A DNA stretch of 64,000 nucleotides from Candidatus Heimdallarchaeota archaeon (GTDB lineage: Archaea > Asgardarchaeota > Heimdallarchaeia > Hodarchaeales > Hodarchaeaceae): the NCBI GenBank assembly GCA_011364965.1, contig RDOB01000008.1:55468-119467 (forward strand), given 5' to 3'. Below the pieces are notes generated by a model. It worked only from the letters and a program-made list of their open reading frames with translations. It ran no database searches and had not been told where the DNA came from. Positions within the stretch are counted from its first letter, which is position 1, and every line of letters begins with the position of its first letter. This document shows, in pieces, positions 1 through 4,132 of the stretch. Made by a program: the position numbers and the translations under genes.

Positions 1-561
1 TAACAAAAAAATCAATGTAATAAATTCAATTGCTTGATTCTCTACCCAATATACGATGAATCCTAAAATGAGAACTCCATTGTAAAGAATGACTAGCTCA
101 GAGGGGAGCCGCTTTCGAAATATGAAAATACTTGGATAACGTCCAGAATAATACTTTTGAATAAGAAAAAGTATCAACAGATATGATGAAAGACAAAATA
201 CAAGACTAAATAAATTTAGGAAAATATAGATAGCCCCATAACCAATTAAATCTAAGGAAAGAGTCATATTCAGGAAAGAGGTTTGTAAGAGACCATCTAA
301 ACCAATGGTAGCAGTACCAGCAAGAATACTTCCTCCAATCCCAGTAAGAGTAGGGATGAGGAGGAAAATACTAGCTGCTAGAGGTGCATTATAGGAATGA
401 TAATAGCGCCACTCTTCAAAAATTTTAATTACAGAAACAATGAATAATGTAATATAAAGAATGGTCAGAGAAATTTCACGAGATTGGCTTGTAAGATATG
501 AAAGCAGAGCAAAAACAGAACCAATAACGAGAATCGAAAGAAAAGCATTTCTTTTAACCAA
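1..561 (-). CDS. Multi-pass membrane protein, 3'-truncated by window edge; last visible gene of the Ubl operon (absent from ORF track)
   Basis: Manual translation from TTG at 561: MVKRNAFLSILVIGSVFALLSYLTSQSREISLTILYITLFIVSVIKIFEEWRYYHSYNAPLAASIFLLIPTLTGIGGSILAG...FITLIFLL, open for 187 codons to position 1; about 5-6 hydrophobic segments; starts 12 nt after the JAMM stop, with AGGA upstream. Confidence 0.8.
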   Translation of the reverse strand, partial: MVKRNAFLSILVIGSVFALLSYLTSQSREISLTILYITLFIVSVIKIFEEWRYYHSYNAPLAASIFLLIPTLTGIGGSILAGTATIGLDGLLQTSFLNMTLSLDLIGYGAIYIFLNLFSLVFCLSSYLLILFLIQKYYSGRYPSIFIFRKRLPSELVILYNGVLILGFIVYWVENQAIEFITLIFLL

Positions 562-573
562 CTAATGGACATC

Positions 574-1386
574 CTAATCATGGTCATATTCCAGAAACAT
601 TGTATCACCTTCAGCTAGAGGAAGGAGAGTACTTATCATATCAGGTAACCCGGAAAGTGGACAATTTAATACCTGAAAGCGGGGCTCCTCCCAACTTCGG
701 AGATCTTGCTTCAAACGAAAGATTTTAAATCCATAGGAATTTGTAGATATACGCGTAGGGTCAATAACCAGAGCAACAGGTGCTGTTAATGTGGAATTAT
801 TAGCCCCTAACCTTTGATACCGTACTTGTGTATCAAAATCCGTATCACTCATAAAAGAACCGTAGGATGGATGAGAATGATACCAGCCAAGAATAAATTC
901 CTTTTTTTTACTAGATTCATTAAATACTCGAACCATACTTTGGGGATTTCTAATTTGAGCTGTAATATTTGTACCATGACCAATAGGAAACGCATCAGTA
1001 GCTACTAAACAAGCCATCGGAGTGTCTTTATTCTCAATATATCCAGTTAATAAACCTATAACTTCCACCCATTTATGCTGAGGAATTTTAGGATTAGCAT
1101 ATTTCAAAGCGTGTAAAGTAAGCTTAATATAAGCTTTCAGATGCACTTTTACTCGTATAGGATCGGATTCGGGGTCTAAATCGCCTATTTCGATATCTTC
1201 AACTTCCTCAGAATGAGAATCTAGTTTAATATCATTATTATCATCGATTGGCACTTTTACGGCGTGATTTCCAGCAGTTGGAAATCGAACTGTCAATGTA
1301 AGATTATCAGGATCAAATTGAAGAGCCATGTCTCGTAAAAGAAGCTCAAAAAGGTTTTGAGGTCGGTTATTTGGTTCACGTTTCAT
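574..1386 (-). CDS. MPN+/JAMM metallo-isopeptidase (Rpn11/CSN5-like)
   Basis: EVIGLLTG, GWYHSHPSYGSFMSDTD (HxH-x7-S-x2-D JAMM motif), TQ..YQ and VALVIDPTR; acidic N-terminal extension of about 75 aa. Confidence 0.95.
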   Translation of the reverse strand: MKREPNNRPQNLFELLLRDMALQFDPDNLTLTVRFPTAGNHAVKVPIDDNNDIKLDSHSEEVEDIEIGDLDPESDPIRVKVHLKAYIKLTLHALKYANPKIPQHKWVEVIGLLTGYIENKDTPMACLVATDAFPIGHGTNITAQIRNPQSMVRVFNESSKKKEFILGWYHSHPSYGSFMSDTDFDTQVRYQRLGANNSTLTAPVALVIDPTRISTNSYGFKIFRLKQDLRSWEEPRFQVLNCPLSGLPDMISTLLPLAEGDTMFLEYDHD

Positions 1387-1406: not shown

Positions 1407-1934
1407 TTACCAGTTCTGTTTTGCATATTTCTTCGTGATTTCTCTGGCTTTCTTCTTGAACTTTTCCTTGCTTTGAAGGTATTCAACTGCAGCTTTTTTA
1501 TTGAAGACATCATGTGGATTGGTATATGCCTCATCAATGTTGAACATTGCAAGAATAGAATAGATAACAGTAGAAATGTTCTTGGAAGGAGACCAACCTT
1601 GAGGAGATCCAATTAAATCAGGATCAACGAGTCCTAGACAAATATTACGCTTTCCTTGATATTCATCAGGCTTAGGCCAAAAATTCGGATGCCAAATTGG
1701 AGTATGGAGCCTAACAAAAGGGGGAGAGTACGGATAATTTGTCCCAAACAGAATTTCGAGCCGAAATTTCCCACCTTCATATGGGGTGCTTTTAGGACCT
1801 TCTAATAACACTGCAAGGTGTTCGATTGATTTTTTACCACCAGGAAATGCTTTGAGTTGTTTGATTGTTTTTTGTTTATAGAGAGTTTTAAGTTGATTAT
1901 AATCATCAGCTATTCTTTTAATGCGAATGGACAA
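1407..1934 (-). CDS. Ubiquitin-conjugating enzyme E2 (UBC fold)
   Basis: GPKSTPYEGGKF, YPYSPPFV, WHPN, ICL (Cys99), WSP, and AREITKKYA C-terminal helix. Confidence 0.97.
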   Translation of the reverse strand: MSIRIKRIADDYNQLKTLYKQKTIKQLKAFPGGKKSIEHLAVLLEGPKSTPYEGGKFRLEILFGTNYPYSPPFVRLHTPIWHPNFWPKPDEYQGKRNICLGLVDPDLIGSPQGWSPSKNISTVIYSILAMFNIDEAYTNPHDVFNKKAAVEYLQSKEKFKKKAREITKKYAKQNW

Positions 1935-1936
1935 AG

Positions 1937-3184
1937 TTAATCCTCCAGTTTAAGATTTAGATACAGTTGAGTCCCATCTGCAAATCCTGTAACAAAAAGA
2001 GATTCATAATCTCTTAATTTGGCCTCAGAAATAGATAATGTCCAATCTAGCTCCTCTATGTTAGAGGAATCGATCCGAAAGATTGTCGGAGGAAATTCCT
2101 CATCAAAATCCAAGCTCTTCTCTTGAGAGAGGCAAATGATAAGCTCTTTTAACAGATAATGATGCTTAGCTTTCACATGATAAATAGGAGAACGCTTAGA
2201 ACCGCACATGGCACAATTAGTGTTGATTGGTTTTTCAAATTCGTAAAATTTGCCCGATAAACCGTTATAAATCATATAATTCAATTGGAGAGAACCAAGT
2301 TTTCGATCTTTATCTGACGTGTGGAGATGATGCAGAATTTTGACTGCTTCTTGTGATTGAAGAGAGGCCATGACTGCGTTAATAGTGATGACTGTGGGTT
2401 CATGATTGTCAACTATCTGAATAATTTGATCATTGGTGAAAGGAATAGCAGTAGGAAAGTATTCTGTGAGTAATTTATTAGCATAATCCCGCACTGTAGT
2501 AACTTCTGAAGCAACAAGGATATCAACAGGATGGTTGTGATCTTTTTCAAATTGGAGTTGCCCCTTTAGAATACAATGTGCTGGACGGCGAGGTTTTCCT
2601 ACTAAGGTACAGGCTCCAAGCTGATCTTGAGCTCGTTCAGTAAGTGGATCACATTCCAAGCAAGCATTAGTAAAAGGCCAAACAATATAGAGGTGACCAT
2701 TATAAGCGGCCGTACCTGCGTCAATAAGCGGTTTTTTGTTATGAACTGCCCTCCGATTCAATTCAGAACGAGCCTCAATAGAATCTAAACCAGCAATATA
2801 GAGATCAACCTCTTTATAGATTTTTGGAGGAAGATCTTGAAGAGGAGAGTTATATGCATCAATTCTGATAAAGGGATTAATATCACGGAGACGCTTAGCA
2901 GCATATTCAGCTTTCGATACTCCTTCTGGAGCTCCAATAAATAAAATCTGGCGATTCAAATTCGAGTATTCCACAATATCGAGATCAACAAGAACTAAAT
3001 GCCCAACACCGACCATAGCAAGATTTTTGGCAACTTCCACACCCAAACCACCGACTCCAGCGATCAGGACAGAGCTGCGTTTCAAGAGTTCTTGACTCCA
3101 GCCAGGAAGACGAAATTGTCGGTCAAAACGCTGCTTCTCAGCTTGACTAAGACTAGTACTTCCAAAATTGGACATTTTATTCAC
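1937..3184 (-). CDS. Ubiquitin-like activating enzyme E1 (ThiF adenylation domain + catalytic-Cys insert + C-terminal UFD-like domain; Uba3/Uba2-like)
   Basis: RFDRQ, GVGGLG, DLDIVEYSNLNRQILF, LDSIEAR, CLEC...CAMC Zn pair, ACTLVGKPRRPAHCI catalytic-Cys motif. Confidence 0.95.
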   Translation of the reverse strand: MNKMSNFGSTSLSQAEKQRFDRQFRLPGWSQELLKRSSVLIAGVGGLGVEVAKNLAMVGVGHLVLVDLDIVEYSNLNRQILFIGAPEGVSKAEYAAKRLRDINPFIRIDAYNSPLQDLPPKIYKEVDLYIAGLDSIEARSELNRRAVHNKKPLIDAGTAAYNGHLYIVWPFTNACLECDPLTERAQDQLGACTLVGKPRRPAHCILKGQLQFEKDHNHPVDILVASEVTTVRDYANKLLTEYFPTAIPFTNDQIIQIVDNHEPTVITINAVMASLQSQEAVKILHHLHTSDKDRKLGSLQLNYMIYNGLSGKFYEFEKPINTNCAMCGSKRSPIYHVKAKHHYLLKELIICLSQEKSLDFDEEFPPTIFRIDSSNIEELDWTLSISEAKLRDYESLFVTGFADGTQLYLNLKLED

Positions 3185-3198
3185 TTCTTAGACCGATT

Positions 3199-3555
3199 CT
3201 AGTACCCTGCAGTACTGACTGGGATGATTAAAACTTCCATTCCATCTTCTACATCATAGTTTGAAACTACATCATCAGAATCAAGAGTACGCCCACTAAT
3301 AGATAAATGAAAATCATTGGGGTCTAATCCAAAGATTTCCCCAATTGTAGTTTTTAACTCACTTACTGACATTTCAGGGTCAACTCTTAATTTTTCTAAC
3401 TTCTCTCGAGGCCCAATAGTGGAACGAAAGAATAAGTTCACTGATGCGCCTCGTGAGGGGGTTTGTTTTGGTGTTTTGGATTGGATGGGTCTTTCTGTTT
3501 CTTGAATTTCTTCATCTAATTCATCTAGCTCTTCAAAATCCTCATTCTCTGACAT
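3199..3555 (-). CDS. Ubiquitin-like protein (Ubl-2), precursor ending STAG-Y
   Basis: Beta-grasp pattern (SVSELKTTI, FHLSISGRTLDSDDVVSNYDVEDGMEVLII); acidic N-terminal tail; 14 nt upstream of E1. Confidence 0.9.
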   Translation of the reverse strand: MSENEDFEELDELDEEIQETERPIQSKTPKQTPSRGASVNLFFRSTIGPREKLEKLRVDPEMSVSELKTTIGEIFGLDPNDFHLSISGRTLDSDDVVSNYDVEDGMEVLIIPVSTAGY

Positions 3556-3737: not shown

Positions 3738-4085
3738 TTAACCTGCGGTCGAGTGAGGAATTAAAAGAACCTCGTCACCATTTTCAATACCATAATCCCC
3801 AATTGGGGCAGACTCGTCCATGGTACGACCAGCGTGACTAAGATGAAAGTCATCAGGGTTTAAACCAAAGATATTTGCTAGAGTATCTCGGACTTCTCTG
3901 ACAGGAGCTCTTTCCCCAACAGAGATCTTTTCAGTTCGTTCAGGACCAACGGTAGATTTAAAGAAAATGTTCTTTCGTGGACCAGCAGAGGCCCCAGAGA
4001 TAGGGGTCTTAGATTGTTGAGGGGTTTTTGATTTAACCTCAATTTTTTCGTCTAGATCAAAATCTAAATCTTCAAAATCACTCAT
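3738..4085 (-). CDS. Ubiquitin-like protein (Ubl-1), ending STAG
   Basis: Clear paralogue of Ubl-2 (NIFFKSTVGP, IFGLNPDDFHLSHAGRTMD, DYGIENGDEVLLIP). ATG at 4085 preferred over TTG at 4094 because GGATG lies upstream and MSDFED matches the Ubl-2 N-terminus. Confidence 0.9.
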   Translation of the reverse strand: MSDFEDLDFDLDEKIEVKSKTPQQSKTPISGASAGPRKNIFFKSTVGPERTEKISVGERAPVREVRDTLANIFGLNPDDFHLSHAGRTMDESAPIGDYGIENGDEVLLIPHSTAG

Positions 4086-4132
4086 ATTTTTCAAACATCC
4101 ATTTTTTTATGTTTAGAGTTTCATAAGAAACT

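Follow-up and report, generated by a model that had tools for sequence, protein, structure and literature searches.

A polytopic membrane protein with a C-terminal RING-type finger is the putative E3 ligase of an Asgard archaeal ubiquitin operon

The window analysed here, a 64,000-nt stretch of the genome of a Candidatus Heimdallarchaeota archaeon (G000:C1:55468-119467), carries at its start a minus-strand operon for two ubiquitin-like modifiers (Ubls), an E1-like activating enzyme, an E2 and a JAMM metalloprotease, an enzyme that probably processes and deconjugates Ubls. The last enzyme gene of this Ubl-Ubl-E1-E2-JAMM operon encodes a polytopic membrane protein and runs off the window edge; the coordinates of these genes and of those beyond the edge are collected in Table 1. 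Its 187 codons within the window begin with a TTG at position 561, 12 nt past the JAMM stop codon (576-574), and stay open to the edge, just as a reading of the sequence alone had described a TTG-started, multi-TM ORF of 187 or more codons; ORF coordinates and hydropathy both agree with that description. The position of the TTG start is supported by the TTG, GTG and ATG starts of relatives, which fall in the same alignment column, and the 12-nt spacer implies co-transcription of the JAMM and membrane protein genes, possibly with translational coupling. Among the genes on the far side, the K/P-rich protein has weakly similar counterparts (28-40% identity) at the same position in several relatives, and it could be a member of the system, e.g. 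a lysine-rich target. Elsewhere in the window genome, a second, distant E2 paralogue lies ∼3 kb from another RING-like ORF (G000:C16:73048-73368 and C16:76257-76448), and more RING-like ORFs are found in frames of 360-442 aa (C13:119803-119997 and C12:8292-8438); these are possible additional ubiquitin-type modules.

Table 1. Features of the ubiquitin operon and of the genes that follow it. Plain coordinates are window positions; the others refer to the contig that holds the window (G000:C1) and to the corresponding locus (L001).
Feature	Coordinates	Strand	Basis or position
Ubiquitin-like modifier 1	3738..4094	-	Pfam ubiquitin PF00240, E 6.6e-7
Ubiquitin-like modifier 2	3199..3555	-	Pfam ubiquitin PF00240, E 3.5e-7
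E1-like activating enzyme	1937..3184	-	Pfam ThiF PF00899, E 3.1e-53
E2 ubiquitin-conjugating enzyme	1407..1934	-	Pfam UQ_con PF00179, E 1.1e-26
JAB/MPN (JAMM) metalloprotease	574..1386	-	Pfam JAB PF01398, E 7.5e-13
Spacer, JAMM stop to TTG start, 12 nt	562..573	-	ORF coordinates
N-terminal 187 codons of membrane-RING gene: TM1-5 and start of TM6	1..561	-	ORF and hydropathy
Linker and RING finger beyond the gap	G000:C1:54925-55347 = L001:14458-14880	-	in-register frame
TM201, polytopic membrane protein, about 195-201 aa	L001:13850-14455 = G000:C1:54317-54922	-	starts 2 nt past membrane-RING stop
Lys/Pro/Ser-rich low-complexity protein, 232 aa, very basic	L001:13056-13754 = G000:C1:53523-54221	-	after TM201
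243-aa protein: N-terminal zinc ribbon, then several TM helices	L001:12271-13002 = G000:C1:52738-53469	+	opposite strand below operon

The window is immediately preceded by a run of 118 N (G000:C1:55350-55467), which we read as a scaffold gap because it is one of several N runs, differing in length, in this assembly of 16 contigs. On the far side of the gap, a single minus-strand frame is open from the gap edge for 140 codons and then reaches a stop. Its register agrees with that of the membrane ORF (118 N plus 2 nt equals 40 codons), and its 140 residues comprise a Ser/Pro/Arg-rich stretch followed by a RING-like finger at the C-terminus. When both halves are aligned to full-length relatives, 41-51 residues are absent from the gene of the window genome, which fits a 40-codon gap and leaves about 40-50 codons in mid-gene, where TM6 ends and the linker begins, unsequenced in this genome. 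Frame continuity inside the gap is taken from the relatives rather than read from sequence; the join is taken as real, since relatives carry both halves in one frame and the gap size fits the missing residues. Window positions 1-561 are thus the first half of one gene of ∼370 codons, which is called the membrane-RING gene below. The linker-coding DNA beside the gap (L001:14700-14882, minus strand) has 47.5% G+C, as against 33-35% in the membrane and RING parts, and this jump, together with the low complexity there, may be the reason why the assembly breaks at the linker. The sequence-only reading had suggested that this or the next gene might supply the missing E3 of the operon or be its membrane target, and that the adjacent contig sequence should be scanned for a RING or other zinc finger; the ORF as completed across the gap ends, in the same frame, in what is by its sequence a RING-type finger. 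All five parts of the archaeal operonic ubiquitylation system (Ubl, E1, E2, RING and JAMM) are encoded together at this locus.

The single-gene structure is directly visible in relatives. Sixty related genomes were searched with two separate queries, the membrane part and the finger part, and both match one uninterrupted frame of ∼360-440 aa in 18 of 21 genomes of the same genus, in both genomes of the same order (2/2) and in many genomes of the same class. Full-length orthologues were read out from Heimdall-group (Hodarchaeales-type) Asgard genomes (n = 20, 357-406 aa). All 20 fetched relatives share the gene order Ubl-(Ubl)-E1-E2-JAB-TMRING-TM201, where TMRING denotes the membrane-RING gene; this count includes a variant in one family, in which E2-JAB-TMRING-TM201 has Ubl-E1 next door. 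Of the 60 relatives, 35 have the orthologous E2 together with the membrane-RING gene, neither gene was found in 24, and the remaining genome has a finger fragment alone at a contig end. With this fragment set aside, the two genes co-occur in 35/35 relatives that have either; the relatives are not independent, yet the pattern covers four families. In a same-genus single-contig genome (G015:C1:770796-771101), the membrane-RING gene consists of a 145-aa open frame only, with no strong finger match, and this copy is possibly broken or rearranged.

The same arrangement extends well beyond the Heimdall group. A scan of species-representative genomes gave ∼70 further Asgard loci with the membrane-RING gene directly after JAB, in records labelled Promethearchaeia, Promethearchaeum sp., Helarchaeota, Hermodarchaeota and Sifarchaeum (Loki-, Hel-, Hermod- and Sif-type operons). 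The product of the post-JAB gene at these loci is 350-420 aa long and combines 4-7 hydrophobic helices with an S/T/R linker and the same finger. In 13 of 14 inspected distant loci the operon ends with this gene; in the exception (L087), a small membrane ORF of 143 aa follows, for which similarity to TM201 was not detected. TM201 itself was found in the Heimdall-group loci alone. Synteny with the operon elsewhere, which the sequence-only reading had put forward as a check, is borne out in every related operon examined (20 relatives and ∼70 further Asgard loci); an early end of the ORF with no ligase domain and no synteny, which together were to count against the proposal, is the opposite of what is observed. 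Relatives in sequence databases are labelled Hodarchaeales, Hodarchaeota, Heimdallarchaeota and Candidatus Hodarchaeum mangrovi, with some MAGs under other Asgard labels, and all 73 of 73 database matches are annotated as ‘hypothetical protein’ and carry no precomputed Pfam domain. Among 1.84 billion cluster representatives searched with a profile, 91 match at E <= 1e-30, and most top scorers match end to end.

A Kyte-Doolittle scan of the 187 residues in the window reveals five clear hydrophobic helices, with a sixth just beginning. In the structure model, six long helices, joined by loops that hold small hairpins, form a predicted membrane domain of ∼210 residues. The linker that follows (∼60-80 residues) is rich in Ser, Thr, Arg and Pro, and is modelled with pLDDT <50 over residues 213-267, consistent with disorder. 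The loops after TM2, TM4 and TM6 are basic and the TM3-TM4 loop is acidic, therefore the termini and the finger should face the cytoplasm, where the E1, E2 and Ubls reside. The RING is predicted from this charge pattern to lie on the positive (cytoplasmic) side of the membrane. The six-helix domain belongs to no known family by a Pfam scan or by a profile search against PDB sequences, neither of which gave a match, and the Pfam scan likewise returned nothing for TM201 or the K/P-rich neighbour.

When profiles are compared, TM201, which also has six helices, and the membrane domain align collinearly (hhalign; probability 93.8%, E 1.8e-7, 163 columns), a score to be read with the caveat that membrane-protein composition bias inflates such values. 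The motifs common to the two sit where helices 2 and 4 end on the cytoplasmic side. On this evidence TM201 is probably a paralogue of the membrane domain that lacks a RING, and it would act as a second subunit with the membrane-RING protein in Heimdall-group genomes. A complex prediction for the membrane domain and TM201 gave a score of 0.01, a value that counts neither for nor against the pairing.

The finger follows the pattern C-x2-C-x13-C-x2-C-x4-H-x2-E-x3-W-x6-C-x2-C. Ten residues (C298, C301, C315, C318, P321, H323, E326, W330, C337 and C340) are invariant in 64 full-length sequences, and the finger of the window genome keeps all ten. Seven invariant Cys/His residues have RING-compatible spacing, and as the sixth-ligand position is an invariant Glu instead of Cys or His, one of the zinc sites may be atypical or empty. 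A search of PDB sequences with the finger profile gave the RNF24 RING-H2 domain as the best match (E 5e-5), followed by many other RING E3s. In the RNF24 alignment, the second Cys of CPxC corresponds to the third RING ligand, the invariant His to ligand 5 and the Glu to ligand 6; the first Cys of CPxC is a candidate extra ligand, and the residue aligned with the first His of RING-H2 varies between His, Tyr, Phe, Arg and Lys. The positions that contact the E2 in RING E3s are kept, namely the hydrophobic pair of CI[FIYLV]C after ligand 1, W330 at ligand 6 + 4 and the Ser, Ala or Pro of C[SAP]RC after ligand 7, and fall where expected in the same alignment. In the operon RING of Caldiarchaeum, activity needs the equivalents of two of these residues, the Ile next to the first Cys and the Trp of the helix (PMC5654768). 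The structural neighbours of the finger models are exclusively E3 RING/U-box domains (best Foldseek E for this small finger 4.5e-3, weak in absolute terms), and the models place the finger in the RING/U-box fold, with two zinc-knuckle loops, a short beta hairpin and a central helix. A PHD finger, which the C4H spacing suggests, was rejected since the Trp lies at ligand 6 + 4, as is typical of RINGs, and not two residues before ligand 7, and since the top matches contain no PHD structures.

Scanned singly at E <= 0.05, 29 of 34 family members match Pfam Prok-RING_1 (PF14446; best E 2.6e-6) and 17 of 34 match zf-RING_2; PF14446 is the best Pfam match for most members, whereas their six-helix domain has none. 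We take the hallmark of this family (prokaryotic RING finger family 1), reportedly described by Burroughs, Iyer and Aravind in 2011, to be its association with Ub, E1, E2 and JAB genes; the bacterial members presumably carry TM helices. The finger of the window genome scores below the 29.1-bit curated gathering threshold (17.6-18.3 bits, the lower value with E 0.004) and covers profile positions 6-37 of 54, which points to a divergent Prok-RING_1 relative rather than a curated member. Matches to intraflagellar-transport (IFT) proteins were also seen. Among PDB sequences, the finger profile matches the C-terminal zinc fingers of WDR19/IFT144 (E about 1e-3), the IFT121 second zinc finger (Pfam PF23145) is matched by 18 of 34 members, and a CPHC-x-[FY]-P-A motif is common to the finger and the IFT fingers. 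This likeness could be due to convergence or to a distant link between the Asgard RING and a protocoatomer-type RING-like finger.

The closest precedents are soluble proteins. In the Ub/E1/E2/srfp/Rpn11 operon of Candidatus Caldiarchaeum subterraneum, the soluble small RING finger protein (srfp) is an active E3 in vitro (PMC5654768), as is a soluble RING protein from a Helarchaeial ubiquitin/ESCRT cluster (bioRxiv 10.1101/2023.07.25.550441). As in these systems, the finger described here is an operon RING encoded beside Ubl, E1-like, E2-like and JAMM genes in an archaeon, and it keeps the E2-contact hydrophobic residue and the Trp; the extra Cys two residues ahead of the usual third ligand (CPxC) moreover recalls the ‘C3B’ cysteine of srfp (PMC5654768). 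It differs in that both characterised RINGs are small and soluble, whereas the Asgard protein adds the ∼210-residue six-helix domain and a long disordered linker before the finger, in the invariant Glu at ligand 6 and the variable fourth (His) position of RING-H2, and in the RING-less twin of Heimdall-group genomes. No membrane-embedded form is mentioned in the srfp or Helarchaeial RING papers (PMC5654768; 10.1101/2023.07.25.550441), and a description of a membrane-embedded RING in Asgard ubiquitin operons was not found in the literature searched, Asgard ubiquitin papers included. Soluble paralogues of 200-230 aa, with the same finger after an S/T/R-rich region, lie directly after a Ubl gene in other Asgard genomes (L126:5632-6321 and L139:1205-1813). 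The gene for the active Helarchaeial RING E3 likewise adjoins a Ubl gene (10.1101/2023.07.25.550441), and these paralogues are probably of the ESCRT-linked soluble RING E3 type described for Helarchaeia.

Among membrane-embedded ligases, the MARCH/RING-CH (C4HC3) proteins share with the Asgard finger a first four Cys ligands followed by His (C4H start). The MARCH finger is N-terminal to its TM helices and has C-x-C-x7-H spacing. The finger here lies C-terminal to the helices, with C-x2-C-x4-H spacing and a Glu at ligand 6, and membership of that family was rejected. The eukaryotic ERAD ligases Hrd1/synoviolin and gp78/AMFR are alike in having a membrane domain, a linker and a cytoplasmic C-terminal RING, and the Asgard protein would similarly recruit a soluble E2 to the membrane; they offer a plausible functional analogy for the tagging of membrane proteins. 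The Hrd1/gp78-type likeness first proposed from the sequence stands for the domain layout; homology of the membrane domain was not found in the profile search against PDB sequences, and the helix count and the zinc-ligand pattern differ, the Asgard finger not being a RING-H2 (C3H2C3).

We consider it likely that the gene encodes a membrane-anchored RING E3 of the Ubl-Ubl-E1-E2-JAMM operon that acts on proteins in or at the membrane. The basis for this reading is the gene structure, the fold, the conservation and the operon linkage (strict synteny and co-occurrence across Asgard classes), from which we infer E2 binding, with the operon E2 as the presumed partner of the finger, as well as ligase activity and membrane-protein substrates. 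In such a system the E1 would activate the Ubl and the E2 would carry it; the cytoplasmic RING finger would dock E2~Ubl at the membrane face and promote Ubl transfer onto lysines of membrane-embedded or membrane-associated proteins, and the long flexible linker would let the finger reach nearby cytoplasmic loops and tails of membrane proteins. The JAMM enzyme would mature capped Ubl, remove conjugates and recycle the Ubl.

It is improbable that the protein is instead a non-catalytic membrane scaffold or receptor, whose degenerate RING-like treble clef tethers E2, Ubl or JAMM, or binds some other ligand, without stimulating transfer. The Glu at ligand position 6 in place of Cys/His, the sub-threshold Pfam scores of the window genome's own finger and the weak profile matches to non-E3 RING-like fingers (IFT121/WDR19 second zinc finger, E about 1e-3) would suit such a role, but the Ile/Phe and Trp positions that contact the E2 vary hardly or not at all, E3 RING/U-box domains account for all structural neighbours of the finger, this is the sole RING gene in a conserved E1-E2-JAMM operon, and the related operon RINGs are active E3s (PMC5654768; 10.1101/2023.07.25.550441). 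Still less probable is a dedicated substrate or regulated target, i.e. a system that mainly modifies the membrane protein, for example on its linker, with the true E3 encoded elsewhere or unneeded. The linker is indeed long and exposed (pLDDT below 50 over model residues 213-267), and the genome has other RING-like ORFs and a second E2; against this, the linker is the least conserved part whereas the zinc ligands and the E2-contact Trp are invariant, which is the signature of an enzyme-like module, and Heimdall-group linkers are rich in Arg, Ser and Thr with few Lys. RING E3s commonly self-modify, a property that leaves some room for a substrate role.

A true homologue of Hrd1/gp78, with the membrane domain as a retrotranslocation half-channel and the protein as an ancestor of ERAD ligases, is very unlikely: beside the shared layout, the profile search against PDB sequences gave no evidence of membrane-domain homology, and a second comparison stayed within noise. 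Hardly credible is a scaffolding artefact, in which the membrane and RING ORFs are two genes, or unrelated contigs misjoined across a 118-N junction of estimated length where in-frame continuity is expected by chance about one time in three, since in every relative free of gaps the two parts share one frame and have the same neighbours, JAB upstream and TM201 downstream, and the gap size agrees with the number of missing residues.

The membrane-anchored E3 reading also admits a wider evolutionary scenario, which we put forward tentatively and regard as possible rather than probable. The cognate E3 of the ancestral Asgard Ubl-E1-E2-JAMM operon would have been polytopic and, in the Heimdall group, duplicated into RING-bearing and RING-less subunits. 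Tagging in the archaeal ancestors of eukaryotes would have served membrane-protein quality control or sorting first, as a functional forerunner of ERAD, MARCH or ESCRT-linked ubiquitylation that fed the Cdc48/proteasome or ESCRT.

Asgard archaea are close prokaryotic relatives of eukaryotes, and archaeal ubiquitin operons are regarded as models of the machinery that gave rise to ubiquitylation in eukaryotes. In the searched literature on these operons, the operon E3 is described solely as a small soluble RING protein. The E3 reading is open to direct testing, as the components are small and all lie in one operon; reconstitution with cognate E1, E2 and RING has worked for related archaeal systems, and Hodarchaeales isolates have been reported (bioRxiv 10.1101/2025.02.26.640444). 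If it is true that the RING gene accompanying E1, E2 and JAMM across Asgard classes encodes an integral membrane protein, the membrane would be the primary site of Ubl conjugation in these organisms, and this would bear directly on the origin of ERAD and of MVB/ESCRT membrane-protein degradation and sorting. The membrane-RING protein, with its putative ligase role, is of real interest for the origin of membrane-linked ubiquitylation.
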